A DNA stretch of 64,000 nucleotides from Balanoglossus misakiensis (lineage: Eukaryota; Animalia; Hemichordata), in contig CM082577.2 in assembly GCA_040954595.2 (NCBI GenBank), forward strand, positions 18,326,303 to 18,390,302, written 5' to 3'. Of this stretch, positions 32,902 to 60,451 are shown in pieces (position 1 is the first letter of the stretch; each line of letters opens with the position of its first letter). The notes under the pieces are model-generated. The model did not search any database. It was not told the origin of the DNA and worked only from the letters and a program-made list of their open reading frames with translations. The position numbers and the translations under genes were made by a program.

Positions 32902-35080
32902 GGTAATCATGTTCAAATAATACACTACAGGCAATGAATGTATTTGAATTTTAAAGTTGTATTTATTATCCAATATCACATTAATAACACATGCAATTAT
33001 AAATACAGGCAATACTGTTACAATAAGACAAACCTCACAAGAATCACAATACTATAAAATCAAAATTGGATAAAATTATTGATGTCTCTTGTTTTGGTTT
33101 TCCGAAGCAAGTTATCCTGGTGACCATTAGCTGCAATAATTGTAGCTCTTGTTTTTTTCTGTTGGGTTTGCGAAAAAAAGTTCCGCCAAGATATCATCAA
33201 AATGTCAAAAAAAGGCCTAGATATCGTCAAAATGCTAAAAGAAGGCGGAAAACGCTACAGTTACTGCAGTTAGGTGACCATATGCTCTCTGAAAAAAAAT
33301 AGAAAGAAAATCATTGATCCCATCATGAAAGTTTGGTTTCGGCATGCCTTAATAATTAAACCACATCACACCACACATCAACAGAGCTCTGTCTGTTTAA
33401 CACAAGTTTGACCGAAAGACAGAACCCGACGCCAAAATTATCATAGGGTCTCTGAGTGTGAAATGAATACAGAGTCGCATCAGCCCCGGGTGAAGAGTTC
33501 ACACGAGAAATTAAACATTATTCCGATTATTTCTAATTCCATCTTAAAAACGCACCTAGGTACATATTTCCATTATTAACTGTTGTCATTACTCTGTTTT
33601 CGCGACATTGATTCCAGAATCTGTGGATATTTCTACACTCAAAAAAACATTACACGATCGCGATTAACGTCGTGAGCGCCTCCGGCCCGCCCGGACATGT
33701 TTCAAACTCAAAGTCAAAGCGCGTGCGGAAGTAATGTTGATAAATGTTGTCGTTTTTTGCGAAAACAATGTTCAAAACACCAGTTTTCTGAGAGGCATTT
33801 GCCAACTATTTTAACACCATGTACACACGGACACAACATTGTCAGAAATTACCCACCTCTGAAATAGTTGTAGCCGTACAGCCCGTACGTACATCGACCA
33901 GGCAAAATCCATCGCGTGAGTCCCAGAGTTTACGTTGCATCTCATGACGTCACATGACCTTTGCCCATAGATCCTCGTTCATAACGTATGTTTATTTTGA
34001 GGAAGAAGTCGGCAAACTGCAACTTTTCATCAACTAATCAGGGCAGGTGTAAGGTTTTGATACAAATAACGTCTGTCACGTGCTCAAATTGCAAAATGAC
34101 CTGTCAAACTAAGCTGCTGACCGATGACATGCGTGCAGCACCGGACGTAGTCTTGCTCCAAGACTGTGTGATACTGAAAATAAAATGCACGTCCGCGTTA
34201 CGTATATATAGAACGTCCTGTGGACGCGACGCTAATCACACAGTCTTGCCGATTCTGTAAACGCCCTCAAGTGGTTTTACCAGATTTTGGTAAGTAGCGG
34301 AGAACATTCGAACCTCATATGTCTGTCAATCAAATTAGCGTCGTGTCAACATGAGTTCTATACGCGTACATACCAGGTACAGAATACGCATTTTGGGGCG
34401 TTATCGCGATTTTTGTGCGCTTCTAGATGTTCTACATGCAAATTAACGCCGCTCATGAATATTCATATCAAATATATGTGTGCAGAAACGTACAGTCGCT
34501 TTGCCTGGCGGCGCGTCGTACGAAAGTTCCATTCCTTATCGACAGGCACAGCGACTGCCATAGAGTCTACACCGGACGTCGCGCGATTAGGTCAAAACTG
34601 GCTGTCGATAGGCGTACAATAAGGTTTGATAAAGGTTCATAACAAAGCTTCGTCGAAGCTTTCTGTTAGCCAAGATTTTAAAAAGCTTTGACAGTAACCT
34701 TGGTCCAAGGTTTAGCGCAAACCTTGTCTTGTGCTTCGGCACGAAGCTTTGCCAAATCTTTATTGAAAATAAGCTTAGCCAAACCTTTATTGCAAACCTT
34801 CACACAAGCTTTGAGGACACCCAAGCTTGGCCCAAGGTATGGCACAATCGCGTGTGTAGCGCCAAGTCATATGCCACATCCACAGCTTGAAGTCGGGCTT
34901 GAAGCACAATATACGACTGTCCCATCCACCGCTGGCTGCGCTGTGGTGAAGTAGTTGTTCGCGAACGAGGCTGTTGGGCTGTGCATGAATATATTTTAAA
35001 ATTACACCTCTCACGCAACAAATGACCAAGACAACTCTCTGGCAGTAAACCGAAGTATTTTAATAAACTCCGCAACTAAA

Positions 35081-35122
<42 letters not shown>

Positions 35123-35629
35123 AAATACATATCTCAAAACCGGGCAGGAGCTTACTCCCCGAGGTGCGCTGCTGACCCAAGAAAGAGTGCAAAGACTGAG
35201 CATGCGCCGAATATTGAAGGAAGGGCTCCCTAGCTAAGTCAAGGTGTAATTAACCCCAATGACACACATTATTAACAAATTACACCTCTCACGCAACAAA
35301 TGACCAAGACAACTCTCTGGCAGTAAACCGAAGTATTTTAATAAACTCCGCCAAGGCTAGAAAACGGCCAGAGAGTTGAAGTCAAATTCTAATGAGAAAA
35401 AAAAAATATAGAAAAATAAAATAATAAAAAAAAATCACAATAAAGAAAGATGATAAAATACATGATGAACTTGCCAACTCTAAGCTGTGGAAGAACACTA
35501 ACATTGCAAAACAGTAAAGGCGAACTGAGGCTGATAAGTTGCTCGGTTCACAATGCGTACATGGCGCTGAGGCCAAGCCCATAGGGGCGTAACTGTACCC
35601 AGGGAGTTGAAAGTGGCGAAGCGTAAAGC

Positions 35630-36781
35630 TTAACATAACAAGCGATTCATGTACACTAGCAGAGAGGAAAAAAGAAAATGGGAAGGCGACTTGGTAGTGG
35701 CTAACTGAGCCATTCGCTGGGAAACCGTCAAGCGTGTGGACAGGGGTATTTTGACGTAACGTTCATAGGCATTTGACCGCCAATCACCGTGAAGCTTGAT
35801 TAGGTCAGGTGGTACGCCTGCAGCGTGAGCCAGTGAGGCTCCCCCCCTGCGCAAACTGTGAGCAGAGTAGAGACTGCTGTCTTTGCCAACCTTCTTTAAT
35901 AATTTGCTGAGTGCAGATGAAAACGATGAATATGTAAGCGTAACAAGCTTCCCACCCTTGGGGTAAACAAAGGCTGGAGCATCTTTAGCCGATGTAACTG
36001 ATGCCAGCATGCGACGGAGTGCCGACACGGGGCACAAGGGGCTGCCTGGTAAAGCGGCTAACGGTATGAAAAGGGTGCGCTCATGGCACTGCAAGGTTTT
36101 GGACCAACGCACTGCAAGCATAACATGGCTATCTTTAACAACCAAATCCCTACGTGAGAGATGTCGCTTGCAGTCAAAGGAAGTCTTGGAAGGAGGAACC
36201 AGGTTTGACTTTCTGAGAAAGGCGAAAAAACCGATTAGAATGGCACACCAAACAACGAGTTGGAAAACATCACTAATGTCAATAACTGCTGCCATGTCCA
36301 ACAACATGGGAACTGTAATAGGCAACTTCTGAGTGGGCGAATGAACACTACTTTTACGAATGCCGGCCAGCGCTAACTTAAAGCTGAGGCACTCGAACCC
36401 CTCCAAGTTATAGCCGGTAAGAATGTGCAGTGTCTTAACCCCTGAAATATAATTGGAAATGGACACAGGGCTGCTAAAGGACCTGTTAAGGAACTGTGCG
36501 TAAAGTGCCAAGACTGTGGATGAAGCAGGGAGAGCTTGTAAGCCAAAATGGAGTGTGAAGCTAAGGAAGGAGCGAAACTGGGTATGCAAGTTGTCGAGAG
36601 TCCCCGGACGAAATGCTGCCAAACGAGAGCGCTTCACTTCTTGTCTGAGTAACTCTAGGTCCTGCTGAACATCTGTGGGAAGATTAGAATAAATCATTAA
36701 GAGTGAACAAGGACTCTGGAACAGGGGTTTCCTCGAGAGCACGTCCTCTGGTGAGATCAAAAAAGCAGTCTTGGTATGCAC
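35630..36781 (-). CDS. Tyrosine recombinase of the Ngaro element (true start probably near 36690)
   Basis: FFAFLRKSNL (R), WSKT (K), HSLRRGGA (HxxR), HGDWRSNAYERY (Y). The frame is open. Confidence 0.92.
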   Translation of the reverse strand: MHTKTAFLISPEDVLSRKPLFQSPCSLLMIYSNLPTDVQQDLELLRQEVKRSRLAAFRPGTLDNLHTQFRSFLSFTLHFGLQALPASSTVLALYAQFLNRSFSSPVSISNYISGVKTLHILTGYNLEGFECLSFKLALAGIRKSSVHSPTQKLPITVPMLLDMAAVIDISDVFQLVVWCAILIGFFAFLRKSNLVPPSKTSFDCKRHLSRRDLVVKDSHVMLAVRWSKTLQCHERTLFIPLAALPGSPLCPVSALRRMLASVTSAKDAPAFVYPKGGKLVTLTYSSFSSALSKLLKKVGKDSSLYSAHSLRRGGASLAHAAGVPPDLIKLHGDWRSNAYERYVKIPLSTRLTVSQRMAQLATTKSPSHFLFSSLLVYMNRLLC

Positions 36782-38648
36782 TGCCTAGGTGCCACCGGGA
36801 TAAGCAATCAGCGAGTTGATTCTGAGCGCCTGGTAAGTGCTGGGCTTTCAATTCAAACTGAAAGGATGCTGCAATAAACCAAAGTTCACGCGCCGCTGTC
36901 ATAAGGAAAGGGTCACGACCGCGACCAGCATTGAGAACCTTAACTGTGCTGGTATTGTCGCTGTACACCAAGATACGCAAGCCAGTCCATTGGCTCCCCC
37001 AAAGACGGGCCGCGACAACGACTGCGAGCATTTCCAAGCAGTGGATTGGGAGCCGTTTATGCAGAATAAGTTCTGGAAACGTTGAGTGGAAGTACTGCGA
37101 ACCGGAAAGTCCCCCGCAACCTGAAAGGCACGCGTCTGTGCAAACAATGCTGTTAGGAGCGGACCAAGTTAAGTCAGGCATGATAGAAATCCCATTGAAC
37201 TGCCTAATGAAAACAAGCCACCAATTAACATCTTTGTGAAACTGAGCATTTAAGTATATGTGGTGACTTGCGGACTCCACAGAGCGCAAGGTGTCCAGCA
37301 TGCGGCTAATGAAAAGACGGCCCGCGCGGATGCAGCCAGCAACAAAGGAAAGTTTGCCGATTAGAACTTGCAAGTCTCGGCGGGTGGCTTTCCTTCTGCC
37401 CGACCAATCAAGGAGCAGCTCAGTGAGCTCGGTCAGCCTGTCGTCTGTGACCTCCAATGTCATGGCTACTGTGTCAACCTGTATACCTAAGAAAGAGAGA
37501 CGTGTGGTCGGTGGAACCGCCTTACTGGTGGCTTCTTCGACACCCAATTCTTGCAGAAGTGACCGCAAGGCCATAAACGCAGGCTCTGAAAGTGCCGGTT
37601 TCTCGGCACCGCAAAAATCGTCCAAGAAATTAACTGCTCGAAAACCTAAATTGTTGTACATAGAAATAATAGTGTTAGTTGTGGCCTGGCATGCAAGCGC
37701 TGCCGAACGCAAACCAAAAGGCAGACGGAGGTCAATAAAAAGCCGACCCCGCCAAGTGTAGCCCAACAGGTGAAAGTCATGCAGGTCGACGGGTAACTGC
37801 CGGTACGCCCTGGGCAGATCAAGCTTGAAAAGGTGACACCCAGGACCCAGTTCCCTGATGAGAGCCACAAGTGAGTCAATATTTGGGTAACGAAGCTAAA
37901 AATGATGCCCCAGGAAAGTAGACTGAGAAATACCCGCGTTAACCGAAGTTACAGGGGGAAAGCTGAGGTCCATAATAGTACGTCTATCGGTGGACCCTTT
38001 CTTCGGCACAGAAGAGAGTGGGGATGTCGCCACGGGTAGTGAGAGGGAGTTGTAGTCAAAAGGACCAGCGGTTGCGCCTAGACTAACTTCAGTACAAACA
38101 AAGGAATCAATGTGCTGCGCAAAATGCAGGGCGGAACCGTGGTTGCGTCCGCTCGAAAGAGGAAACTGACTAGCGGTGAAATTGACAGGCCAGCCAAATT
38201 CCAGAAAGTCAATAAAAAGCGCACTGTGCTGATTGGGTAAACGTGCTCGCCAGGCGGGGATATTCAACGCTGATGGCACGGGAATGCGAACGCCCGCAAA
38301 GTTGGGCCTACCGGATGAAAAAACAATCTGATGCGTGTCGCGCAACCACTGCGGGGAAATACGGGCGCTTGGCGGCCAGAGGGGGATGCTGGGAGGGATC
38401 CACGCCGGTGTTTCTGGGGGGTTGAAACTACTGGTAGCCGCTGACTGGGAAAAAAAAGACTGGTACTGAAAGTCGTGTATACCCTGAAGTTCATGTGCTA
38501 ATGCAAGGGGAGTGGAAACAGATGGGGCAATTGCGAGCACGTACGTGCCATCAATATCAGGAGAATCCTGACAACAAACTACTGAATTCAAAAATACAGC
38601 GCTGTCAGCAGAAAGGTGACTACGGTCAAAACGTACACTATCCTGCAA
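36684..38648 (-). pseudogene. Ngaro RT-RNase H, broken by an in-frame TAG at 37896-37898
   Basis: IDFLEFGWP, KLDLPRAYRQ, LPFGLRSA, NFLDDF, TDACLSGCGG, CLEMLAV, SDN, LADCLSR. ORFs 37896-38648 and 36684-37868 are in the same frame. Confidence 0.9.
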
Positions 38649-38854
38649 AGGTACAAGTCTTCAAAAGTGAGAACATCACTGTACAAGTGGGCGCTAGGCA
38701 AACTATTAACATAACTGCGCGACTGAGAGGCAACAGAGCTACAAGGAATGGGTGGTGGTCTATCCAGACTAGTTTCATATAGCCTGGAATGTGGTGAGGG
38801 AGGAAACGAGACCGAAGGGCCAGAAAAGTCATCCCGTTTCCCCAAAGGCTGGAG

Positions 38855-40026
38855 TCATTCCTTGTTGCCCCCCTGCGTCTTTTCCCGAAATTCTTTCTCG
38901 TTATATGGACAATCGGCAGCGGCATGTTTCTTTTCTTGTTGCCTATAACGCAAACAGGCGGAACAAACATGTTTCTCCAAGATGCCTTCCACCATGTGAT
39001 CCTCAGCCTGAATACACTTGTGGATCTGAAAGGCGGAACAATACCTGGCACGACGGTTTTTCTTTGGCTTTGTGGCTGAGGTGGAAGTGCTCTGTGGAGG
39101 ATTTCTAACAAATCTAGTGTGGAGGTTATCAAAATCATCCTCCCAATTTAACAATCCTTGCTCCAAATATTGCAACACTACTGAGTGATATTTCCCAATT
39201 ATACAATTGTGCATCTATGACAATGTCTTGCAAATGAGTCAATCTATGCAAACTAGAGTCACTGCCAAACCCCATCCCTAAAATGATTTCGAGTTCACCG
39301 GCCACTAATTGTGGTAAGACAGTTCATCGTATGCCAAGGCCTCTGGCCTGTTTGGGTTTGGGTCGCGGACAAATTCATGTGGCCATGGAATGTACATCCG
39401 TACTCTGTCCGTTATAATGGCTTCCTCCTTGCGCCACTTTTCATGCGTTTACCTTTGGGAATAACATTCTGCAACGGGGATCGTCTGCTTTTGGCCTGTG
39501 TGCGAAGTTTGGTTCTGCCTTTCTTCGCTGCTCTTGTACCACGCTTGGTGTCCATATCATCGCTGCTGGAGCTGCTGCTTGCTTCGGATGCTGAAGTGTT
39601 GGACGAACCGCTCGATAACAAACGTTCGACGGAGTCCTGGAGAGCCGAGTCACGTCTAAGGTCGGCTAGAGTGGAACGAGGTTGCTCGGTCTTTTCCCGC
39701 TCACTAGTGGCTGTGACGTCATCGTTTTTAGGTTTCACAAACTTCATCACCTCGGAAATTTGGTGGAAAATCTCTCTTACTTGAGATGTCACAGAGTCCA
39801 ACTGCTGTTGCACTTTCGGGTCAGTCCCGGAACGCTTACTTGTAATTTTCTTGCGTGTCATTACGTTGTACATGTAAGCTGGCTGTTTTGGGCAGTTGCG
39901 CCGTCGGGCAACTGTATCCATTTCTGCTCGTTCTGCTACAGTTCCCGCCTCGAGTTCTGCGAAGGTATCTTCAACTTCTGATGTGGGCTGAGCCGATTCG
40001 GCCATTTCGGTGAAAATTAAAACCAA
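38855..40026 (-). pseudogene. Ngaro gag-like ORF1, frameshifted
   Basis: Segments 39412-40026 and 38855-39214 are linked by shifted-frame WPHEFV..YDELS..LVAGELEII. C-terminal Cys/His cluster YCSAFQ..C..H..HVCSAC..H..C. Confidence 0.7.
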
Positions 40027-40124
40027 GGAGAACTGAAGAGCTGTGGATACCGGTACCGGATCAGCAATATCAAAGTCCGAAAGCTTTTAAATATCTCAGT
40101 ATCTCAAAACCAGGCAGGAGCTTG

Positions 40125-40285
40125 ATCCCCTCAATAACGATGCCTAGAAAAGTAATTTGTTGAGATGGACCAACCACTTTATGCCATGCTATGTGAAAAC
40201 CTAATTTGCGGAGAAGCTTGAGTAAAGTGTTGAGCGCTAATTGGCAAGCCTGATAGTCAACTCTGTTTACATACGCAATAAACAT
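40125..40285 (-). pseudogene. Fragment of a second, divergent DIRS/Ngaro RT
   Basis: LLKLLRKLGFHIAWHKVVGPSQQITFLGIVI resembles LRSLLQELGVEEATSKAVPPTTRLSFLGIQV of the neighbouring RT. Confidence 0.7.
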
Positions 40286-41639
40286 TGGGTAATCCCTCTG
40301 GATGAGCGTGATTGGTCAGAGATAGAGGGATCACCCAAGTGGCTATGCTCCCTGATGTTTAAACTTCATTAAAGATTTTAATGCCGTCTTACGGCTCGGG
40401 GGGGGGGGGGGTGGGCGGAAAGTTTGTGTCATGGGTTTCAAAATCAGGCCGACCCCCCTTCACCGAGGACCAAAAAATGATGACCCCCCCCCCCCTTGAC
40501 AGGCCAAAAACAAAAAATATGATGACCCCCCCCCCCCCCACGCCGAAAACATTCACCGTCCTGATCCTATGTACACTGTATGCTATAAAGGGAATTCCCT
40601 TTACTAGGTCAATGATGAGATTTGGAAGAGAGTTCGTGTGTGGCAGTCTAATACATATCTACCAGGAAAGCCAGATGTGTGGATATACCCGTACGTGGAT
40701 ATGTCAGCCATACCTGGGAAAGATGCCAGCTGGAAATCTACTGATCTCAGGGGCAAAAACTCTCTTCTGGCTGTATGATTGCCCAAACATTATGATTATT
40801 TAGGTTCATGAATATGTTATGCATTGAAAGAAGAACATTCTACCGTCATCAAAGGCTTTATCTTCAGCCCACTGTTATGACCACTTGAAACTCATAGACC
40901 AACTCAAGCACATGGTAGGAGGATTAGTGATCCCATTCACATCAGCAACCGAGTTGAAACATTCTGTCTGGTAAATGTAATCGATCTGGCATCAAGTTAC
41001 CTGTACTTCTCCAACAAAATCAGAGGAGATGCCAGTACCATTAACAACCAAAACCAGCCAGGAACTGCAAATGCTACCTATTAACCCCAAGGAAAACTCT
41101 ATACAACAAATTCAAGAGAAACTGGTTGACAAACTACTTCAGCTACACTACATTTCACCAGTCAATCAACACTATCACTTTCGTTTAAAATCGGGCCAAA
41201 TTTTCTCAATACTAAACCCAGGAATCGACAAAAAAATATGCCAGTAAATTTCACTTTTTAATTTTGTGTTGTATTTACATTGGTAATTTCATTCCATACA
41301 ATAACCTCTATAAGAAGCTCTCCCAACCAGTGACAGTTAACAATTTGGTTTTTGCTTTTAGTATGAGAGCAAGGAAGCTAAACATTATTAAGTGCACTAG
41401 AAAAGTTTGTTGTTGAACATTTGACAATAAAACATCTAGTGATGTCCGCTGCGACTCCCCTGGCTACAGTGCTAAATACCATATGTTGGTGAAGTTATTG
41501 ATTTCACAGATACTCAAGTTTCCTAGGTAGCCAATTTAAATGCTATGGAGAAGACTGGCTTCAAGAAAAACCCCTGATCGAATTCTGGCCGCCGAAGTTC
41601 CGGTGGTTACCATGGCAACTGACAGGCATTTGCAATGCT

Positions 41640-42340
41640 ATGGAGGTCCTTCATTGAAGATCAGAGTGAAGTGGAGAGGATACCAGCCACCTCTAAGCTG
41701 TACAAGGAATACCAATGGCTGATGAGGCACCTGTGTCTTTCTAATGGTTGGGAGGTCCCAGAAAAGTTCTCGCTTAAGCCACCAAACTCCCAAGCTGTTA
41801 TCATCCATTGGAGAATTATCTCTATTTTGATTAGCAGAATTTCTCCAGAGCAAAGGAACCAGTTTCGTAAATTACTTGATTCATTCCATCGACAGCAGTG
41901 AGGTCTGGGGTAGGGTCGGCAGATATCGGAAATCCCGACCAATCCAACAGGGAAGACACAGACAGACCACAGGAGAGCCAACAGTCTAACATCACGATCC
42001 CAGTCCCAGCGAAAAAGATGGAGGCTGAGACACAGGAAACAGAAGTGTTACCAGAGGCATGGGATTCACATTTCCACCTTGATCGCAAAAGTAGATGCTT
42101 GTTTAGGAAAGTGACATCAGATGAGCTACTACAAGCACCAGATCTACCCATGCTGAAACATCCACTCCATCCACGGGATCGAAGTTTATAGCGAACCAGA
42201 CCAATATCCATCCGACCTCAACAGGAGAGAAAGATGGAAGGTCGCACTGGGGGTACATCCAGCGATTGACCGATGAGGGGTTCTGAAAGCTTGGAGAACT
42301 TACCCTGTCACCTGTGGTGATCGCCCTCGGAAAAATCATG
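41640..42340 (+). pseudogene. Degraded homologue of the Gypsy TatD-like accessory gene
   Basis: MRHLCLSNGWEVPEKFSLKPPNSQAVIIHWRIISILI aligns with MKRLCVFQGWEVPNKFPLNPPTTPAILIHWRVLSVLL (ORF 51089-52531). It continues with WDSHFHLDR and VALGVHP, with stops and frameshifts. Confidence 0.85.
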
Positions 42341-43589
42341 GAATAAGAAGCTTAAGAAAGATGGCAGAAATATAGAGTAAAAAGAATAGAAGAAAAGAAG
42401 CAGAAATTTTGTTTAAATTTTTTTTATTGTAGTTTCATTGTTGAACAGTAATACAGGATTTTAAATTCACATAGCAGGCTGGAATGTGCGTGTTTTTAAG
42501 TCATGAATGAAAATCCAATAAATCCGCCACTATTGTTACTACTATTGTTACCAAATGTATGGAAGCCCAATGTGGGTAAAATTCACTATCAGCACAATGT
42601 GGAAATTGAAAGTTGCATACAACAACGCTGCTCATGGACGAAGTAGTGCGAGCTCTATGTTTGTGACGAACAGAATTGATACATTCGATGCCCTGCATAG
42701 AAGGCGAATTTTTAGTCTCAAACAAAGACTTTAGCTGAATGTTGCATTTTTATGAACTCAAAAGCAAATTATCTCAATGTTTGGGAGGACCAATTTTACT
42801 TTTTGCCACTCCACTCAAAGTTAGAAGATTTGGCGTCATCTTTGTCATGACATCATTTATAAAACTTCTAGTATATAGAAGTGGGGTTGGGGTGGCAAGC
42901 ACTCTGCCCTGGTACACTAGCCAAACCAGCAAAAAACGAAATGTGGCAGAGAATGAAGGGGGTGGGTGTGGGAGGGGGTGTCCCCCTCGCACATTAGAAA
43001 ATTTTGTAAAATAAAGGGCGCGAAACTGCAATTTTGTGGACTCAAAAGCAAAAGTTCGGTGGCAAAAGTATGTGACCCCCCCTAAACGTTTAAAAAAAAA
43101 GATGACCCCCCCTTTTGGACTTCAAAATTAAAGTGACCCCCCCTTGGATTTTGCCACCCCCCCCCCCCCCCCCCGGGCACTATTTTTTGTTCAAAACAAA
43201 TTTCTTCTCATGCCACATTCTGTGCTCATACCTTGTATTGGTGCGATTTGATACAACAATACACAAAGAATTTCATCACCAATCACAGTATAAAAACTAA
43301 GATATCTTAATATGTTTACGTTGTAACCAATTTCTAAAAATTATATGATATGATATGAAACTGAAAATTGGGATCCAAAATTGTGAATTTGGTGAGACCT
43401 ATTGTGTTAAATGAGGGAAATGACAATAATTTGTGTGAGGCAATTTATGTATGAGGGGGAGTTTTTTATACTAAATTATGGCACATACACACCAGGAGAA
43501 ATTGCCATGGAAATGGCCTTGAGGTTTTATGACCTCTACTGAACATGTCAAAGAAGTGCTGAATCCCATCTTGTTTTACTATTTCACAG

Positions 43590-47345: not shown

Positions 47346-48151
47346 TGCAGCAGTTCAACTTTAGCAAGTACCCACATGCGATTCCCCGTGTTAGACTAAT
47401 GGGATTTGGTTTGAGGAAAGAAATAACAAACAACAAACAGAACGAGAATTACAATAGAGCGAGAATTTGTGGTAATTTACGAGACTTCGTTCGGCATGCC
47501 TCAGAATCGGTACAATTTCCTTTGATTGGTGAAGAATCGCTTGAACTTGCGGGAAAAATGAACGTATCCACAGGATTCACTAACCATCTATCCTTCCCAG
47601 GAGGCAGTGGCATGAAACACTGTGCGACCGTTTGTGAGTAGCGAGCGATTAATGGTCGCAATGCGTGGCCGCGCAGTTCTAAAGTAATACTCGCCCTACA
47701 GGGGAGAATACTACTCGCGGTTGCACCGGCCGTGTATATATTACCTACACAAAAGCGGTCGATGCTTATACTAACTATGACTAAATACTTAACCCTTTGC
47801 TGCCCAGGGCACCCTCATGCGCCCGACATGCGCTGCTGTCCAGAGCACCCGTATCCGCCCGAGATTTCCTTCTTCCGGGTTTGGGAAATTCCATCCGGGA
47901 TAGCACGCAAAGTACCCGCCTTTTGATTATGATAATGTGGTGACGTCTGGTTTATATCCGGGACCTTACTTTGACGTCAATGAATATGTATGTTCCCATT
48001 GGATAAATTTGAATTACAATCGTTTGAAGTTGTTTGCCGCCTACGCGTCACGGAAAATTATCATAACCGCTGACCTCTGTAGTGTAAAAATATTCACGTC
48101 GTGTACACTTTCCACTTTAACCTTTTACACGACCTATATTAAACAACAACA

Positions 48152-49849
48152 ATGGATCCCGGCCGTGCTAATGCGGAAGTAATGAGGTTTCTTTTGGACG
48201 ACGACGACGATGAAGAATTTCTCGGTTTTCCAGCGGAGGATACGGCCAGCGACATCGAAATCCGCGAAATCAACGATGCGCTGCGACAAGTTCTCGAGCT
48301 GGAGAATGAGAACGACTTAGAAGTCCCGGAAGATCTGCGTAACATCCCGTGGTCGGCCGATCTAGAAAATTTTGATTTACCAACATTTCTCGTAGGCGAA
48401 TCAGGGCCAAACCACAACCTGGCGGCAGGTTCTCAGCCTCTTGATTATTTTTTTTTACTGATTCCGCCGTATTTTATACGACGCTTGGCAGAGGAGACCA
48501 ACCGTTACGCCGATCAAAAACAGCGCGCGACGGGCATCGACCGCTATTGGTATGACACAAAACCCGACGAAATCAAGGCGTTCATCGCGATCAATATTTT
48601 GATGGGAATACACCAGCTTCCCAACATCAACTTGTACTGGTCGACTGATGACAGGCTTCAGGTCCCGGGCATAACCAAAATTATGACCAAAAACCGTTAT
48701 AAGAAGTTGTGTCAATACTTTCACGTCAACGATAACGAAGCCGACCAGCCAGCTGAAAACCCTCACCGAGATCGCATGCATAAGATCCGCCCGCTCCTCG
48801 ACGTCGTCCAGCTCACATTCCCGGCAAACTATGTCCCCTTTCGCGAGATTTCCATCGATGAGGGAATGGTAAAATTCAAGGGGCATAGCTACATGATTCA
48901 GTATCTGCCAGCGAAACCAATCAAATGGGGGTTCAAGCTTTGGATCATCGCTTGCCCCCGTACCGGGTACTGCCTCAACCTCGATCCGTACACCGGGAAG
49001 AAAGGTGGTCAAGTCGCCCAGAAAGGTCTGGGATATTCGGTTATTTGGCAACTGTCGCACATGTACCACAACATGGGGCACGTTTTATTTTATGATAATT
49101 TTTTTAGTTCAGTCGGGTTAGCCCTCGATCTGCTAAAATCGGGTACGCTTTGCTGCAGTACAGTTCGGCCAAACCGAGTTGGATTTCCCGTCGATCTCCG
49201 GAATGTAAAACTCGATAGCAACGCGTCAAAAACTCGCCAGTTTGGGAAGCTGACGGCAACTGTGTGGCAGGATAAAAGACAAGTTACCACACTCCAGCCT
49301 GAGTGTGTAACAACAAGACGGCGAGCCGGAGAAGTGTCCTGTCCCAAGAGTATTGTTGACTACAACAAATATATGGGCGGTGTCGACCTTTCAGACCAAC
49401 TCGCGACCTACTATCCTTTGGGCGGAAAGCACTTCAAGTACTGGAAGTACCTGTTTTGGTCCATTCTAAACAGGGCAATCTGCAACGCCTGGATTTTGTA
49501 CAAGATTGCCAATATTCCAGCTCCAAGACGAAGATACCGCCAGCTGGATTTCCGCCTAGATCTGTGTACACAGTTGACAGCTGGATTCAGTGGTAGAAAG
49601 CGACCAGGGCCATCACCAGCTCCTGTCCTACTTCCAGCGTCGCTGAGTGCGGATAATTTTCCCGGCCACCAGTGCACAAAATTGGACACTTCCCGGCAAA
49701 AAAAGGGCTGTGTTCTTTGTGCTAAGCAAAAGAGGAAGACGCAGTCTGGCAGAGCTGTCCAAACAACGTGGATGTGCTGCAATTGCAGAGTAGCCCTTTG
49801 CAAAGTCGACTGCTTTGCAAAGTACCATGCCATCCAGTACCAGGCATAA
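48152..49849 (+). CDS. piggyBac transposase (PGBD4-like), 565 aa
   Basis: DDD triad SIDEGM, FYDNFF, GGVDLSDQ; KPIKWGFK; C-terminal Cys-rich domain CVLC...CCNCRVALCKVDCFAKYH. No stops. Confidence 0.95.
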   Translation: MDPGRANAEVMRFLLDDDDDEEFLGFPAEDTASDIEIREINDALRQVLELENENDLEVPEDLRNIPWSADLENFDLPTFLVGESGPNHNLAAGSQPLDYFFLLIPPYFIRRLAEETNRYADQKQRATGIDRYWYDTKPDEIKAFIAINILMGIHQLPNINLYWSTDDRLQVPGITKIMTKNRYKKLCQYFHVNDNEADQPAENPHRDRMHKIRPLLDVVQLTFPANYVPFREISIDEGMVKFKGHSYMIQYLPAKPIKWGFKLWIIACPRTGYCLNLDPYTGKKGGQVAQKGLGYSVIWQLSHMYHNMGHVLFYDNFFSSVGLALDLLKSGTLCCSTVRPNRVGFPVDLRNVKLDSNASKTRQFGKLTATVWQDKRQVTTLQPECVTTRRRAGEVSCPKSIVDYNKYMGGVDLSDQLATYYPLGGKHFKYWKYLFWSILNRAICNAWILYKIANIPAPRRRYRQLDFRLDLCTQLTAGFSGRKRPGPSPAPVLLPASLSADNFPGHQCTKLDTSRQKKGCVLCAKQKRKTQSGRAVQTTWMCCNCRVALCKVDCFAKYHAIQYQA

Positions 49850-50045
49850 AATGGCCCTTTGCTTTTCACGGCCAACAAACGGCCCTTTTCAGGGCCATCA
49901 CTAGAAGTCACACTACTGTAAAAAAAATGTGACCCAAGCCAAACGGCCCTTTTCAGGGCCAACAAATCCTCCAAAAAGAGAATACCGAAAAATAAAAATG
50001 TAAGCACCCACTCTCAACAACACAAACACACACAAACGTATACAG

Positions 50046-50046
<1 letters not shown>

Positions 50047-50092
<46 letters not shown>
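50047..50092 (+). repeat. (CA)n microsatellite in the piggyBac 3' region
   Basis: Direct observation. Confidence 0.95.
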
Positions 50093-50094
<2 letters not shown>

Positions 50095-50794
50095 GACAGA
50101 AAGAAGGAAATGAAACCTTTAACTTAATAGTAAAAAGAAAGAAATTACTGTTAATAATGTGAAAAACTGACAAAGAGACCTGTAATTTAGTTTTATTTAT
50201 TCTCATTCAAAACTAATTTCCTCTTCACCTGAAACAGAAAGTGTAAAATGCACAAAACCTGCTTTCCATGAACTATAGTTGAATGGAAACTTTCTGGACA
50301 CATCACATGCCACACATCATTGAAACGGGAATTTTCAGAACTGTAAAATAAATTTTACCTGCTACAGTCAATTCCCAACCATTTTTGAGCAAATTCTGGT
50401 AAAAACACACACCTAATTTTGATTGCACAATCTCACTAATTCAGTGAAAAGTTCTGGGCTCCACTATGCATTGTTATGCAAATGAGCTGGGCTGCAAAGG
50501 GTTAACTATCTTAAACGCTATATAAAGGTGAGACAGAACTATATGTGAAAGCTTATAAGGATATTACTTACGTCTTGATAGATATCAGGTACAATTCGGT
50601 CTATCGGATCTCCAGCTCGTCGGAACGGCGTGCTTTCCCCAGGTCCGCCCACACTGCTGTTGGCCTCATCCATTGGTGCTGCCCCTGTCAGTCAGATCTC
50701 CGTGCTCCGCCTTCCACGGTCCTGGCTGGCTGTCGCCCTGGGCAACCTACTCCGGCTGCCAGTCATCCGGGGGTCCAAATGTAATTCCACTACA

Positions 50795-50814
50795 CTCGTC
50801 CTTCTTTTCTTTTT
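50795..50814 (-). promoter_or_regulatory. Polypurine tract
   Basis: AAAAAGAAAAGAAGGACGAG directly followed by TGT on the minus strand. Confidence 0.75.
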
Positions 50815-51088: not shown

Positions 51089-53322
51089 TCAGATCTGGTA
51101 CAGACGGCGGGCGTTTTCGGCCGTCTGCGCCAACAGCTGGCGAGTAGAGGTACCTCGCAGTCTGGCTACCTCAAGTGCTACGTCCCCAAGGAAGGCTGGA
51201 GTATTCATCCTCTGGGACTCCCACACGCGTCTGCTGGGCGACTCGGTCTCCACTAAGATCCGGTCCTCCGAGATAGCCTGCATGGCTTCAATCTGTCGCT
51301 CATCAAACTGGCGGACGGCTGCCGAGAACCCAAAATAGGTCTCGGGGAAGTACCGCCGCCAGTCTCCCACGGTCTCCATACATCCTCGGAAATCCCGGAG
51401 GTGGATCTGCTGGCGCTCGTCGCAGTGCCTGGTCATGGTTAGTAGAGTCCAGGCTGCCGTGTGTCGGTCATACCTGTCGTTGGAGGTTCCCCGGGCGGTG
51501 ATGACTACTGGCTTCCTTCCCGGGTTCATGGTTAACAGGTCTTCGAAGACCCTATCTTGGCCTTCCCAGGTGGAGGGGTCTTCCGTCCGGTCAAGTCCGA
51601 TGTCCCCTAGTGCGGCCACGTCTGGGCGCCTCAGAAGATTGCCGAGGGTCTGGCGTTGATCCTTGGTCATGTATGGTGCCACTCGTGGGTTAACTCCAAG
51701 GGCTATTGGAAAATCTTTTTCCCCCGGCAGCGGGTCCGGGTACCGATCCGGCTCAGAGAATACTTGTAGCCCTCCGAGGAGCCGGATTCGATAGTCTGGA
51801 AGGACACCAACATCGTAGTCAGTGAGGTCTTGTGGAGTTGTTGGAGCGTCCTCCACCCTACATTTCTCGGCGCAGGCCTGAGGGTAGAAGCAGGCATCGA
51901 TTCCCCCGGGTGTGGATGGGTCCCGGGCTGCTGTTTCGGGTGGCTGTGTCCGGGTTGCTGCTGGTCTCCGGGGCGGTTGGATTCTCCAGAACTCGTCCTG
52001 ACGCGCTTGTGATACCCATCTGAGCAACACGCTCAGCACGCGCCAGTGGATGAGGATCGCTGGCGTGGTGGGGGGGTTCAGCGGGAACTTGTTTGGTACT
52101 TCCCACCCCTGAAACACACACAGGCGCTTCATCATAACGATGCTCTCGGGCGAGCACAGGGATTCCGAAGGGATTTTTCCGGGTCCACCCCTACGAATGA
52201 ACAGATCCAACAGGTCGGGTATCTCTTTCCCGGGACCACATAGCCAGTAGGTCAGCTTTTCCAAAGCCTCCACCGCGTCCCGCTCGCGGAATACCTCTGG
52301 CCTCTCAACAAACAGTTCGGGAAGGTGACGGTGAAATACATGTTTCTTCAACTTCCGTGTTGACATCCGGCATCCCGGGAATGGACATGGAGAGGGGCCA
52401 TACGAGTAGCGTGGACCAGGGGGTGGGGAGTTTCTTCGGGTCGGCCTGGTGCTCCTCCATCGGTGTTCCTCCATCGGTGTTCGGTTTGTCTGGGCGGTTC
52501 CGGCGTTGGGTACCGGATAGGTGAACGACACCTGGGGCTGAGGTCTCCCCAGCGCGAATGGGATGGTCGTTCGCGGGAAGGCGGGCGGTCCCGCCTCTCC
52601 TCTCTAGCACGACCCGGTCGAGGCGACCGGGTTGGGGATCTGGACCTAGTGGGGAATCCGAGAAATTCCCGGAGATCCCAGGGGATATCGATTTCCCCCA
52701 CCTCCGACATCTCCTCCGGCGCTATAGGCCGGATCAACGGCTGCAGCGGTAGCGTCTCCTGGCGTGGGGGTGGTGGCTCCTGCAGAAACGGTCGGCCACT
52801 TTCTGCTCTTGGGGGTGATCCGTGGGTGGGGGGTGGTTCTGGCCCCTCCAACACCTCCATCGCCTGGTCTTTGTCGCCACCGAGTACCTGTCTCTCCTGC
52901 TGTGGGTCCGGGAAGATGCTGAGGGTTTCTTCCTGGTCGTCAGCTGCGGTGGTGGTTCTGGGGAGCTCTTGCAAAGAAAGACTGCCGACGAACCCTCCCC
53001 GTACTCGGCCTAGGTTGAACTCCCGGGGGACTGTGGTTTTCAGGGCTGTGGTGCGACTCTTCATGGCTATGTCGGGCGCGGGCAGATGGGCGTTAACTTT
53101 TTCCTCTCCGTAGATCCGGATGGCCTCCTCCCGTGCGATGGACATCCACCCCACGTCCCCAATTACGGTGGCCACTTGGAAGTGCTCGTGGAGCATTTCG
53201 AACATGGTGTCCTCGTCCATGCCGAGGTCTCTCAACCGGGGGATCACACTGATGGGGTCCAAGAGTTTCCCCTTGCCACATCGGAAACGGATGTCCTCCA
53301 ATTGACGTTGATTTGAATCCAT
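51089..53322 (-). pseudogene. Accessory ORF (~739 aa when repaired): helical N-terminal domain, Pro/Arg-rich linker, C2H2-like finger, conserved helical domain, TatD-like amidohydrolase fold
   Basis: ORFs 52348-53322 and 51089-52531 join in frame if the 14-bp tandem duplication CCTCCATCGGTGTT (52454-52481) is removed. TatD-like motifs ALGDIGLD, KPVVITAR, YFGFS, RILVETESP, TAENARRLY. Confidence 0.85.
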
Positions 53323-53369
53323 TCTGGGGGGGGGGGCAAAAAGAAAAGAAAGAAAATTAACGGTTAGTG
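53323..53369 (-). promoter_or_regulatory. Splice acceptor immediately upstream of the accessory ORF
   Basis: CACTAAC branch point, ~30-nt polypyrimidine tract, then CAG|A ATG. Confidence 0.75.
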
Positions 53370-53434
53370 GGTCCTCGTCGGTAACGAGTCATAGTCCTAC
53401 CCGATGGCAATTTCCCCTTTTTCCCTCTGTTCCC

Positions 53435-56400
53435 TTACTCATCGGTTCCCTCCCCCACGCAGTTCGGACAGTGAAAGGGGTCTGTCGATTTGACCTGTTT
53501 TGGGGAGAGATTGACGCAGGTGCTGTGAAACCAGTCGTAACAGCTGTCACACTGGACCATCAGCTTCCCGGTGTCCGGCCCACGGCAGACACAGTATGTC
53601 TGCCCCCGGTCTTTGTCCTGCGTGTCAGGATCCCCACCCTTCAGGGGTAGTGACCTCTTGAATTTAACTATCCAGCTGGGCAGTTGCGCGTCCCTGCACA
53701 GCTTCATTCTGTCGTGGTTTGCGGTGGCCATGCGTCTCGGAAATTTCACCCGGTACAAGTATGGCGATAGTTTCGCTATCACTATTCCTGGTCCTTTCCA
53801 TGGTGGGCTTAGTTTTTTACACTTCCCTCTCACGGTCGCTGAGTCCAGAAGGTAGACGGGGTCTCCGACTTCATATGAACTGAGACGGGCCTTCAAGTCG
53901 TAATCTCGCTTCATTCTTTCCTGGGTGACAACAGTTTTTCCCGAGCGAGCTCATGGGCTTCCTTCATGGTGCTTCCCAGGTTGCTCGCATATTCTTCAGG
54001 GTCTTGGGCTGGCGCTGGTTTCCCGAAGACCAGGTCGGCCGGTTGGTTCACTTCCCGCCCCAGCATAAGGCGATTAGGTGTGAATCCGGTATTTCGGTTT
54101 ACGGAGGTCCGAATGGCTCCGGCGATTTGGGGTAGGAATTTGTCCCACTCGTTCTGTTTGCCCTGGACGAAACAGCGAACTGCATCCATGAGGGTCCGAT
54201 TTTGCCGTTCCACCTGGCCGTTCGCGGACGGGCGGTACGGCGTGGTCCTAGCCTTGTGTATTTGGAGCAATTCGCATACTGACTGGAACAGCTGACTTTC
54301 GAAATTACTGCCTCTGTCGGTGAATATCTCAAATGGACATCCGAATCGAGAAAAGAATTCCCCTACGGCTGCCGTAGCGGTCACCTCTGCCGTTTGGCTA
54401 GGTAGTGGAATGCACTCTACCCATTTGGTGAATTGGTCGACCATGACTAGGATATATTCGTTTTTTCGGGGTGTCCGGGGCAGTGGTCCAAGAAAGTCCA
54501 GATGTACCCTTTCCATTGGCGATCCCACGTGGTACCGGGTCAGGGGGCACCTCGCATGCCGCTGTGGTTTCTTGTGCTTGTTGCAATCGTTGCATGAGGC
54601 TACGAAGCTGCGGACATCATCTGCCATCCGATGCCAGTGGTACTTCATCTGGAGTCTGGCCAGCGTCCATTGCACGCCCTGGTGTCCTGCCGAGGGGATT
54701 GCGTGATTCAGTTCAATTACTTCCGATATCATTTTTCTGGGGATGACCAGTTTTCCTTCGCCCTCGTCCTCGGATTTCCTCCGGAGTATTGGCATCTTCG
54801 GGTCCACATAGTATATTTCTCGGTTTATCCAGGCATTTTTTGCGGCGGGGCTGAGTAGTGCCAATGCGCTCTCTGCGGGAGTTTGGCCAGTATTCAGCCA
54901 TTCCAGTATCGGCCGTAGATCGGCATCTTCCCGCTGTCGTCGGTATATGGTGTCCAGGGTTTCCCGCCACGGCGTCTCGATCTCTGGCGAGCTGCTCCTA
55001 GTCACCGTGCATATCTTGGGGTCCTCTTTTTCCGCCTGTGTATCTTCACCGGAGGTCGTGTCCTCTCCCCTGAAGTCTATTCCGATTGACTTTAGTATTT
55101 CGTCGAAATCGAATCCTTCCCCGGGGTCCTCCGGGGGGTCTGCGAGGTGGTCATTCGTCTCGTCGTCTTCGTTGCCTAGGTTTACCGCGCAGACGTCTTG
55201 TCTGATGTCTTTGGATGGTTGTGAGGCTAACGGTATTACTTCGTCTACCTTGGTCACGAAATCTCCCCAATTTCTGTGCGCTCGTTGGCAATAATCACAG
55301 CCGCCGCAGGGAAGTTCGTCCGGCGTAACGTTGTGACGGTAGTGTCGGCACTGCCCCTGCGGTTCGATTCGGGATAAGGCATCAGCGTTGAGGTGTTTGT
55401 TCTCAGGCCTATGCTGAACCGTCATGTTGTACTGGCTAAGTTCCTCCAACCATCGGGCCAATTGTCCTTGGGGTTCTTTAAACCCCAGCAACCAGGCCAG
55501 ACTGCTGTGGTCCGTCCGTATTATGAAATGGTTCCCCAGCAAGTAGTGTCGAAATAACCGGGTAAATCGTACTACCGCTAGGAGTTCTTTTCGGGTCGTA
55601 CAATACCTTGTTTGCTCGGGTGTTAGCGCGAAGCTGGCGTACGCGATTACTCGCTCCCCTCCATCCTGCACCTGGAGAAGTTCCGCTCCCACGGCAATGT
55701 CTGATGCATCCGTGTCCAATATGAACGGGTCTTTTGGGTTCGGTAATGTGAGTACCGGCGCTGATGTTAAGCGATCTTTTAACGCTTCGAAGGCCAGCTG
55801 TTGCTCTTCGCCCCACTTGAAAGGCTTTTTTCCCGTAACTGTGTACAGCGGGGCGGCCAACTTGGCATGATCCTTTATAAACGAGCGGTGATAGTTGGCT
55901 AAACCTGCGAAACGTTCCACCTCCTTGGTGTTTTTTGGCGTCGGCCAGTTGCGCACTGCGTCAACGGAACGCGGGTCCAGTCCTATTGTTCCTTTACGGA
56001 CAATCCGCCCCAGGAATTCCACTTCCGTCTGAAACAGCTCACACTTGCGGGGGCGTAGTTTCAACCTGTATTCTCGTATCCGGGTGAACACGTCCCGCAG
56101 ATTCTGGAGATGGTCAGCAAAGTCCGCCCCAAGTACCATGATGTCGTCTAAGAATGCAAATACTACCTCCCATGTCAGCCCACGCAGCACCAGATTCATG
56201 GCTCGCGAGTATGTGGCGGGGGCGTTGCACAGGCCGAAGGGCATGCGGGCGAATTCAAACAGTCCGTACTTTGTGGTAAAGGCGGTCTTCTTGCGGTCAT
56301 CTTTGTCCACTTGTATCTGCCAGTACGCTGAATTGGCATCTAGTTTCGAGAATCATTCATTCCCGGCCAGCGTGTCCATGCAGTCTTCGATCAGCGACAG

Positions 56401-57972
56401 GGGGAATACGTCTTTACGGGTCACGTTTTTCAGCGCCCGATAGTCAACGCACCAGCGGACGGTCCCGTCCCTTTTCCTTACCAATACCGGTGCCGATGCC
56501 CATTCCGATGTTGAGGGTTGGATTACCCCTGACCGTAACATTTTCTTGAGATGGGCTTCCTCCTCCCCCGCGAAACGCAGTGGGGTTCGGCGCATCCTCT
56601 GTTTCACTGGTCGTGCATCCCCCGTATCGATACCGTGCGCAAGGGCGGTGAAGTTCCCCAGGTCGTATTCATTTGCAGCAAAGACATCCTGGAACTCCAT
56701 AAGTAGCTCTTTCATTTCCTGTGACTGGTTCTCCGTCAGATTGGCTGCTGATTTCTCGGCCAATTCTCTCAAGTGGTCTGGGAGCTCGTCTTCGCCATGC
56801 GGTGAAGCTTCCGTGAGTAGTTCAACCTCGCTGACTGTGCCTGTGGCGATTTCGATGTCTTTGGTTAATGTCCGAAGAAGCTTTCCCCCGACTGCTGTTG
56901 CCACTACTGTTCCCGGCGGTATTGTGACGTTGTCATCGGTCGGGTTTATTAAACAGATGATTGGGGGTTGCCCCTTTTTACAGAATGTCCGGGGCATAAT
57001 GAGGTCACCTAGTTTCACGGGCTCCACTATGTAGTTGGGCATGTCCATGTCGATTGTCCCTGTCACCCTGGTCACGGAGTTCGGAGACAGGATAGTGCGT
57101 GGAGTGACTGATATGTTGGCCACGTGCGTCACAGCGGTCTGGTCCCCTTGCAGCAACGGGAGCCGCTGTTCTCCCACCTGGAGGGTGTTTTCTCTCATGT
57201 CGAGGATGACCTGCTTGGATCGAAGTTGGTCTATTCCCAACAGCATGGTGTCGCCTATGGGGCCCACATATATATTTTCTCGAAAGGCAGTGCTCCCCAA
57301 CTTCAGGTTCACTGGTCCAATTTTGAATCCTCTCATGGACGAGTCTCTTCCGGCTAGTTGTACTTTGACATCGTGTATTATAGGCGGTTTCGGCTCTAGG
57401 GTGTCGTACAGCCTGTCGGAAATTATTGTTATTTCTGCGGCCGTGTCTAGGACGGCGAGAACCTCGGTCCCCTCGACTTCTACGGTGACTTTGTACATTG
57501 AACTTGGGGAGATTTTACGGATGGTCACGCTGGGGGGAGCGGTGGTGTCGCTTTGGTGGCTAAGCTCGATGGACATTGCCGGTTGGGGCTGCTGATTGCC
57601 GTCACTGGCTGGCTCGTTCTCCGAGTTTTCGATCAGCACCTCTTCCCGGTCGACGAGATATAACAGCTCCCTCTCTGAATTCTCTTCCAGCGCTTCAGTC
57701 ATCACTGCCCCGAGTTCCTCAAATTGTCCAAGTTCGCCATCGGTTGCTTCTCCGTCCGAGCCATCGCTGTCTTCTGATTCGGAATCAGTTCCCGGTGGAC
57801 ATACCGGGGGTAAGTTGGCATTGCTGGCAGACGGATTACGGCTCCCGGTGGCTCTGTCTGTAATGTTATTTTCGTCTTCCTCCACTGGCTCCACATCCGC
57901 GTTCCTCATAAGGCCAATTCCGGTGACTTGGGTCGGGCTTAGGCTTCTGTGACCGACCCGTACCGGTTTAAC
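53435..57972 (-). pseudogene. Gypsy pol: protease, RT, RNase H, integrase, PHD finger
   Basis: LDTAAEITII, MPFGLCNAP, FLDD, DTDASD, HH-CC integrase finger, HLDFLGP/TDRG/VERQNR, WKGP, YCVC..CDSC..WFH..C..CPNC. In-frame TGA at 56353-56355 (Trp expected) and a frameshift near 53928. Confidence 0.95.
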
Positions 57973-59357
57973 TGGCATTGAAAGACACGCGTTTCTGTGG
58001 GGGTTCTGGCTTGGTGTCCGTTGACAGACGCGGACAGTCCTTTTTGAAGTGGCCTTCCTGACCACAGTGGTAACATCCGCGGCTCCTGGGGGATGGTGAT
58101 CGGCTGGTTGTACGGGGTCGGTTGCCCCAGTTCATACGAGTTAGCTGATTAGTGAGCATTTCTACAGCAGTGCCCAGTCCGGACATCTGCGTTTCCACCC
58201 GGGCTAGGTGTGACTCCATCCGTGACAGGCGTCTATCCATAACAGGACTGCCCTCACTGGGTCGGACCTTGGGTTCGGTTGAGGGTGTGTCGCGCTTCTG
58301 TCGTTGGGGGGTGGATGCTGACTGTACTCGAGCTATCTCCTCGGCTTCTGAATCAGAACTGAGTCGGCGCACTTCGCGTTTTGGTGAGCGGCCTCCGAAT
58401 ATCTCTTTGTTGTTGTACTGGTACCAGCGTATCTGGTCGATGGCTTTCTCCATGGTCTGGGGGCGCTGTGTGGCTGCATTCAATCCAGCCTCTCTGTCGG
58501 CACAGCCCTGGCAGACCTTAATGATCGCTTGCCTAATCATCGCTTCCCCATCGCCATCGGGATAAGCTTGTGCTGCCAGGATGAGAACTCTGTCTGCCCA
58601 CTCTTCCAGGGATTCTCCTGTGTTTTGTCGGGATTGATTGAACTTCATTTGAGCGGCCTCTGGGAGTTCACAGTACCCAAACCTTTTCTCCATTTTTCGG
58701 ATTACCTCTTCGTAGGTGATGTTTTTCCCGGGGCCGGCGAGTGTTGTGTAAAACATACTGGCCCTTCCGTCGAGGCACCAGCAAAGTTGGCTTTTCCGTT
58801 CCCGGGAGGTCCACGCTTCGATATCCGCGTACTGCGTGAACTTGGTATAAAATGCCTGTCAATTTCCTCCCCCATTGTATACTAACGTCTTCGGCAGGTT
58901 GACAGATAGTTGACGGTGGACAGGGTGATCTGTTTTCCTGCTTGGGGTGTCGACATTTTTAGGGAGAGTGGATGTCTGCGTAGTTGTCACTGCTGAGGCC
59001 CCAGTTCGGGCGTCCGGGCTCTGCGTCCCCAGTGCTGGTCCGGGATCAGACTGATATTGTGGTGCTGCCCCCCGATAGGGTGGTGGGGGGGGGTATAAGG
59101 TAGCGACTGTCGGGACTGTGGCTGCTGCCGGAAGTATGGACCCCAGTTGTACTGGTTGGCATCCACCTGTTGCTGTTGTTGTGGTTGGGGATAGGCGCCC
59201 CAATTGTATCCGCTGACGTCCAGCTGTTGTTGTTGTTGTTGAGGGTGTGGTCCCCAACGGTACTTGCTGGCGTCTGGTTGTTGTTGCTGGGGTTGTGGCG
59301 GATATGAGCCCCAGCTGTTTTTAACGTCTGTTTCCTTTTGACTCTGGCCATACTGGG
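57968..59357 (-). pseudogene. Gypsy gag, disrupted
   Basis: Gln-rich repeats, capsid-like RQNTGESLEEWADRV, knuckle CYHCGQEGHFKKDC. In-frame TGA at 58859-58861 and at least one frameshift. Confidence 0.85.
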
Positions 59358-59553: not shown

Positions 59554-59559
59554 TAAACG

Positions 59560-60417: not shown

Positions 60418-60451
60418 TGGGAGGTCGGGGCGCTGGCCAGCCCTTGACCTC
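60408..60451 (+). promoter_or_regulatory. -1 ribosomal frameshift signal (gag-pol)
   Basis: C CCA AAC heptamer in the gag frame, a 6-nt spacer and the stem GAGGTCGGGG...CCTTGACCTC. pol is in the -1 frame. Confidence 0.8.

Follow-up and report, generated by a model that had tools for sequence, protein, structure and literature searches.

A short stretch of decayed coding DNA in the hemichordate Balanoglossus misakiensis raises the question of what kind of gene it came from, and of whether that gene encoded a working enzyme. Within the 64,000 nucleotides analyzed here (the window), this relic joins part of an unfamiliar N-terminal domain (N-domain) to the beginning of a TatD nuclease, and a paralogue lies on the opposite strand as the third open reading frame (ORF3) of a Gypsy retrotransposon. 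An earlier note had proposed that the two belong to a family defined by this domain architecture, with branches whose active site is intact and branches in which it is lost.

A decayed relic and its paralogue in the window

The relic was delimited with family proteins (Table 1), its bounds being set by contigs of related copies, which diverge from the window at 41635, and by another repeat that starts at 42336. Alignment to the family resolves it into four blocks (41650-41880, 41883-42170, 42172-42261, and 42269-42337). Upon six-frame translation, GWEVP (41746), IHWR (41803), WDSHFHLD (42060-42083), and GVHP (42250) are all found on the plus strand, spread over three reading frames. As the earlier note had it, the fragment is decayed and carries the same pre-TatD domain as the ORF at 51-53 kb on the minus strand, with which its N-domain piece shares 26 of 66 residues (39% identity; E 5e-18). 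The decay amounts to three frameshifts, one in-frame stop, and the loss of both ends. This piece scores 68.8 bits with a family N-domain HMM built without the relic, 300 shuffles reaching at most 5.2 bits, and the piece ending in GVHP scores 29.3 bits with the TatD HMM (shuffles at most 5.5). Taken alone, the relic pieces have no match in Pfam, and the zinc finger found in other family members is absent from its N-domain.

Table 1. Positions of the relic, of the window Gypsy element, and of their parts
Feature	Position	Strand	Basis or remark
Whole relic, inner part of a probable Gypsy third ORF (half of N-domain, linker, first third of TatD)	41635..42336	+	tblastn with family proteins
C-terminal half of N-domain (GWEVP...IHWR)	41650..41880	+	HMM positions 71-137 of 138, 61-69 bits
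Low-complexity linker	41883..42059	+	Between N-domain and TatD in family alignments
WDSHFHLD, HxH metal motif of class II TatD, intact	42060..42083	+	
TatD strands GIEVYSEP...GVHP, His kept	42172..42261	+	
Last TatD piece: in-frame stop, then ALGKI; homology stops	42269..42337	+	
Paralogous ORF3 of the window Gypsy: variable N-terminus, CCHH finger plus helical N-domain, TatD	51089..53322	-	
N-domain of window ORF3	52393-51983	-	
Ligand-dead TatD of window ORF3	51904-51095	-	
Gypsy gag (zinc knuckle) and pol (PR, RT, RNase H, integrase, SH3, PHD finger), damaged	53435..59320	-	Pfam
Polypurine tract then TG, likely 3' LTR start	50790..50814	-	
Predicted splice acceptor: branch-point-like CTAAC, pyrimidine tract 19/20, CAG	53324..53370	-	One base before the ORF3 ATG

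The breaks in the relic are not assembly errors, since over 41614-41814, 41842-42045, and 42016-42365 the sequence of the window is reproduced exactly in short-read contigs, although these contigs possibly come from the window's own sample and are not independent support. The same sample holds a contig about 85% alike to the relic over 41635-41831. The two differ at 30 positions, and 14 of the 22 differences listed fall at third codon positions (p 0.003); by this pattern, the relic lineage diverged as coding sequence.

Of the four active-site positions that the relic covers, three are kept. These include both His of the HxH motif, the retention of which had been read correctly from the sequence, and the His of GVHP. 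The remaining position, that of the catalytic Glu (E91 in Escherichia coli, E593 in TATDN2; motif G-E-x-G-L-D), is a Lys (42332-42334), whose letters are confirmed by a short-read contig (ALGKI). The relic ends at this codon, and three further ligand motifs are absent. Therefore, the relic alone cannot prove an intact or active site. The earlier note had concluded from it that the family has both kinds of branch; that conclusion holds, but through evidence from outside the window.

As no pol or LTR lies beside the relic, and no gag remnant flanks it either, its own Gypsy origin rests on homology and on its relatives, which make it very probable that it is a piece of such an element. Since it is identical to window ORF3 at just 53 of 156 columns, it comes from a different family from that of the window element.

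Window ORF3, in which the GWEVP and IHWR motifs lie at 52108 and 52051 (minus strand), is itself damaged. A frameshift near 52.47 kb splits it, and the segment before the frameshift matches the N-terminus of a relative, P0014 (E 7e-6). Of eight active-site residues, its TatD domain keeps one, whereas 30 of the 36 conserved positions elsewhere are kept (Fisher p 3e-4), which indicates targeted loss rather than general decay. Among the two further His and the E-x-D ligands, three of four are gone. Self-comparison of the window revealed no LTR pair for the Gypsy element at 51-59 kb. A deep contig omits 147 bases in the N-terminal part of ORF3 (window 52972-53120), and within ORF3 contig depth is greater across the N-terminal half than in the TatD part; deleted ORF3 derivatives may be common.

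Several other elements share the window. On either side of the relic is a small, high-copy element whose inverted ends consist of G/C runs (40389-40548 and 42883-43166), and these two elements are related. A tyrosine-recombinase retrotransposon at 34999-40130 (minus strand), with gag-like, RT/RNase H, and YR ORFs, bears split direct repeats (34999-35073/35277-35351 and 35130-35160/40100-40130); we take it to be DIRS/Ngaro-like. At the 3' end of the Gypsy element, a piggyBac-like element (47789-50501) has an open transposase of 568 aa and TTAA/CCCT ends, and it is polymorphic or recent, since contigs that skip it exist. A second, unrelated Gypsy (59557-64000, plus strand) stands head to head with the first, which lacks a 5' LTR. 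Over the first 22,000 bases (1-22000) extends a large block in which repeats of ~240 and ~1700 bases are nested, with both orientations represented. At 22742-24246 (plus strand) and 29364-31080 (minus strand) lie ORFs with HTH and integrase-core (rva_4) matches, and ORFs with no Pfam match that presumably carry a HECT-like motif; together these ORFs are possibly a further mobile element.

The TatD ORF3 family and its two domains

A five-sequence profile run against 1.84 billion representatives retrieved 536 proteins at E 1e-30 or better, and the family comprises at least 150 clusters at 50% identity. We examined 151 representatives, namely the best 150 of the 536 and P0002. The layout of N-domain plus TatD is indeed a family trait, the N-domain being found at 25 bits or more in 112 of the 151 (the remaining 39 are mostly short). 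Both kinds of branch exist as well. Among the 126 representatives that cover seven ligand columns, 106 (84%) keep all seven, 9 have lost one, and 11 have lost two or more. The two His of HxH are present in 131 and 125 of 152 rows, the catalytic Glu in 139 of 152, and the CCHH finger is nearly invariant where covered. Family members score 82-120 bits with Pfam TatD (PF01026), for which the cut-off is 27. Their general architecture consists of a variable disordered N-terminus, the CCHH finger and helical domain, a linker, and a class II TatD barrel. Three members stand apart: P0117 has a sulfatase fusion that is likely a chimeric model, P0149 has a zinc knuckle, and P0046 is 1543 aa long.

For 30 of the 151 representatives looked up by cluster, most clusters are unnamed. 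The named members come from Ostrea edulis, three species of Haliotis, Lingula anatina, Lytechinus variegatus, Ptychodera flava, and Glandiceps talaboti. P. flava has six loci on at least five scaffolds. No family member was found in viral contigs, and no pol-ORF3 fusion among proteins of 1884-5000 aa, which is weak evidence from a word-index search. Protein searches of this type were weak in general, returning 13 matches, 11 of them ordinary TatDs, and then 2 matches.

The N-domain appears to be a well-folded module. Its predicted model (143 aa, from 98 sequences) has a pLDDT of 96.7 and shows a helical body that comes after a CCHH finger of the beta-beta-alpha type. Pfam has no family for it, Foldseek found no clear fold match in PDB and BFVD (best E 2.6 and 1.3), and a VIA comparison with 48,161 chains gave no clear match either (best Z 3.7). 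In Atlas, its best score is 0.88, to unnamed eukaryote clusters. This domain of ~140 residues is thus predicted to fold confidently with no clear structural match, which by itself does not prove a new fold. In the model of a compact full-length member, two confident domains are joined by a flexible linker (pTM 0.70), the linker having the lowest confidence. The modeled TatD barrel superposes on solved TatDs with TM scores of 0.70-0.80 (normalized by target; Foldseek E 2e-13), at 22-26% sequence identity. NCBIfam and PDB scores point to the YcfH/TatD group, but they are below all NCBIfam cut-offs. We presume that the family also resembles TATDN2 in its motifs.

Linkage to Gypsy elements and predicted expression

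The genomic context of the family could be read in the window and in two metagenome-assembled genomes (MAGs) labeled Sedimenticola, which look like one host. These MAGs were found with a degenerate N-domain pattern, which gave 79 matches in GTDB genomes, 7 of them true family loci and all of these in the two MAGs. They hold 217 and 18 Gypsy pol matches, respectively, and their contigs with eukaryotic retrotransposons are likely mis-binned host DNA. The family profile has 36 matches on 27 of their contigs: 22 with N-domain and TatD, four with a TatD lacking the N-domain among genes of bacterial type, and one with a broken deletion form. The active site is complete in all 22. In 16 of the 22, ORF3 is intronless and lies directly behind integrase/SH3/PHD on the same strand; in the other six, each of which has ~920 nt or less upstream, there is no pol match. 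The complete order gag-pol-ORF3 is seen in eight contigs, and these eight and the window element have gag followed by PR-RT-RNase H-IN. Those contigs that are full-length either form closed circles or have repeats of 88-1187 nt at their ends, as would be expected of collapsed LTRs. Scans of the circular contigs for PBS and PPT identified no consistent LTR ends.

A quick RT tree (49 rows) unites the window pol, eight TatD carriers, and two truncated contigs in one clade (SH-aLRT 99) and places L204, a divergent TatD carrier with no PHD match, in a sister Gypsy clade. Together with L180, L182, and L205, L204 makes up a divergent TatD ORF3 subfamily with a weak N-domain score, a short linker, and a full active site. 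Among the elements sampled, TatD ORF3 is confined to these two sister RT clades. Among 40 further RT contigs from one of the two MAGs (G001), a TatD piece was found in L213 only (17 bits). Since many of these contigs end early at the 3' side, with just 20 having 330 nt or more after pol, the absence of TatD outside the clade is weakly shown.

The position of ORF3 is compatible with expression in the manner of env. For env and some plant aORFs of LTR elements, a spliced subgenomic mRNA is known (excerpts of PMC7264820). When the YAG richest in pyrimidines was taken near the pol stop of each of 17 elements, an ATG followed it within 4 nt in 13 of them, vs. 18 of 109 windows inside pol and 5 of 20 TatD-less contigs (p 1.5e-6 for the comparison with pol windows, a value that is overstated since the elements are related). 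In 10 of 16 contigs, the ATG next to the acceptor opens a frame that reaches the TatD stop without interruption. The window has the clearest acceptor-like site, with 19 of 20 pyrimidines and the ATG one base on. It is quite likely, judging from these signals, that ORF3 is expressed from a spliced subgenomic RNA.

Selection was measured on the TatD domain in eight pairs. Two close pairs gave dN/dS of 0.03/0.23 and 0.018/0.134 (~0.13), and in the other six dS was 2.3 or saturated. By these values, the TatD domain of ORF3 is under purifying selection.

In an ORF3 tree made with the ligand columns removed, the relic falls inside the main family (support 100 vs. the divergent subfamily). It groups weakly (SH-aLRT 80; FastTree 0.98) with window ORF3 and with ligand-keeping Ptychodera and Glandiceps proteins. 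The earlier note had named as the finding that would speak against its view that the closest intact relatives are intron-bearing single-copy host TatD genes unlinked to retroelements. This was not observed: by the tree, the nearest intact relatives are several P. flava loci, which lie on different scaffolds, and a single protein from Glandiceps. Relatives with readable DNA are intronless retrotransposon ORFs.

Competing readings and a proposed role for ORF3

Our preferred explanation, which we regard as probable, is that the relic is a dead, truncated third gene of a Gypsy element, the intact forms of which would be expressed by env-like splicing and likely act as two-metal 3'-5' nucleases on the element's own intermediates. 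The main rival concerns the purpose of the protein. ORF3 might chiefly be a counter-defense binder or decoy that protects the RNA of the retrotransposon, its hybrids, or its abasic cDNA against silencing, sensing, or repair by the host, or that titrates a host TatD partner, cutting being secondary. In favor of this reading, placing the eleven ligand-dead proteins in one clade is rejected (AU p 1e-83, on a quick tree of 74 chosen rows with the dead group defined by ligand state), which indicates that dead forms arose repeatedly, with at least six state changes. P0107, like window ORF3, has lost seven of eight site residues and kept 30 of 36 other conserved positions (p 3e-4), and the CCHH finger is retained in most dead forms. 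However, the whole site persists in 84% of complete members, and most of the other dead proteins, taken singly, show no significant excess of losses at the site (p 0.02-0.66). We regard such a role as rather unlikely. A point against the preferred explanation is that the repeated loss of ligands indicates that cutting is dispensable in some lineages.

The remaining rivals concern the relic itself. It might descend from a lineage that was already catalytically dead, with HxH kept and Glu replaced, and so be no witness of the intact branch. The confirmed Lys at the Glu position, its weak grouping with the dead window ORF3, and the existence of dead members that also keep HxH (P0044 and P0121) are consistent with this, but the relic is decayed by three frameshifts and a stop, the Lys codon adjoins a break, and its nearest proteins by tree path (P0144, P0029, P0137, P0048, and P0103) keep every ligand position covered, so that we consider this reading unlikely. 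That the relic is passive cargo of a nonautonomous DNA transposon with ends at 40.4 and 43.2 kb is improbable. Although there are inverted arms (40394-40421/43151-43178), contigs joining ~40590 to ~43000, and a variant contig with the same left junction as the relic, both ends are small elements that have inverted ends of their own, no target-site duplication was seen by eye at the outer ends, and the interior is at low contig depth when the ends are very deep. Finally, the relic could be a retrocopy or pseudogene of a single-copy, TATDN2-like host TatD, and the family an expansion of a host gene, as the automatic NCBI names might suggest (one abalone member is a "putative deoxyribonuclease TATDN2" and others are TatD- or YcfH-like). 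This reading is largely refuted, and we give it very little credence. The gene stands behind a Gypsy integrase as one ORF in 16 of 22 readable contigs, the six Ptychodera loci are dispersed over scaffolds, and the N-domain is absent both from solved TatDs and from 80 of 80 other TatD loci returned by a metagenome scan with a generic TatD pattern.

How a captured Gypsy ORF3 might work can be outlined by comparison with class II TatDs. According to excerpts of PMC10085689, these enzymes use HxH to bind two metals and have both 3'-exonuclease and AP endonuclease activity. In human TATDN2, which degrades the RNA of R-loops, E593 (E. coli E91) is essential, and the N-terminal region is required for binding (excerpts of PMC10711561). 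A Gypsy clade would have captured a class II TatD behind pol and joined it to the CCHH/helical domain; a TATDN2/YcfH-type gene is the source that we somewhat favor. A spliced subgenomic RNA, as for env, would yield ORF3. Ligand-complete members, which with good confidence are predicted from their sequences to have nuclease activity, could then trim the element's own RNA:DNA or single-stranded cDNA intermediates as two-metal 3'-5' nucleases. The finger domain and the disordered part would form a nucleic-acid binding arm, and ligand-dead lineages, including the window copy at 51-53 kb, might keep binding without cutting. The purpose would tentatively be the clearing of hybrid and cDNA by-products so as to finish replication and evade host sensing, with binding supplied by the N-domain and the disordered part. 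In a bolder version, which is speculative and on the whole doubtful, a widespread and undescribed clade of Gypsy elements in marine invertebrates would have acquired its nuclease from a TATDN2-type gene and joined to it a zinc-finger domain whose fold is new. Expressed like env, the protein would serve the retrotransposon as a weapon, removing RNA:DNA hybrids and cDNA or hiding them from host defense, and its repeated conversion into pseudo-nucleases would record an arms race with the host TatD pathway.

Among described systems, the nearest is an ORF3 of LTR elements in bdelloid rotifers that encodes a DEDDy 3'-5' exonuclease (Rodriguez, Kenefick, Arkhipova 2017; excerpts of PMC5408684). In both, a third ORF in sense orientation lies behind pol and encodes a captured 3'-end nuclease of predicted function. 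In contrast to the DEDDy enzyme of those excerpts, the ORF3 described here is a TIM-barrel TatD in a new fusion with a CCHH/helical domain, occurs in five animal groups of four phyla, and has repeated dead branches. With class II TatDs (TATDN2/TATDN3 and YcfH/YjjV, as presented in excerpts of PMC10085689 and PMC10711561), the family has in common HxH, the Glu of GExGLD, two His, E-x-D, and the barrel, and with TATDN2 also a long N-terminal extension (PMC10711561, same excerpts), but it is retrotransposon-borne, intronless, and multi-copy, and has a folded N-domain. It resembles env and env-like aORFs in its position between pol and the 3' end, its sense orientation, and an acceptor-like site before the ATG (excerpts of PMC7264820), whereas its product has a nuclease fold and is probably not a membrane glycoprotein; the Pfam matches of ORF3 are to TatD and to no env family. 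Among openly accessible papers, a literature search found none tying TatD to LTR retrotransposons; Repbase, subscription journals, and supplements may contain such an annotation. Neither "TatD" nor "DNase" occurs in the main text of PMC8220671, and neither "DNase" nor "nuclease" in that of PMC6238403.

The relic is dead DNA, and its worth lies in pointing to this gene family. In LTR retrotransposons, third genes that encode enzymes have been described from few lineages, all of them narrow. The present one is retained across at least 150 divergent clusters in several phyla. The natural occurrence of presumably active and of dead versions makes the role of a non-env third gene testable with paired proteins. 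More broadly, many models named "TatD-like," "YcfH-like," or "TATDN2" in the genomes of molluscs, brachiopods, echinoderms, and hemichordates probably represent transposon genes.
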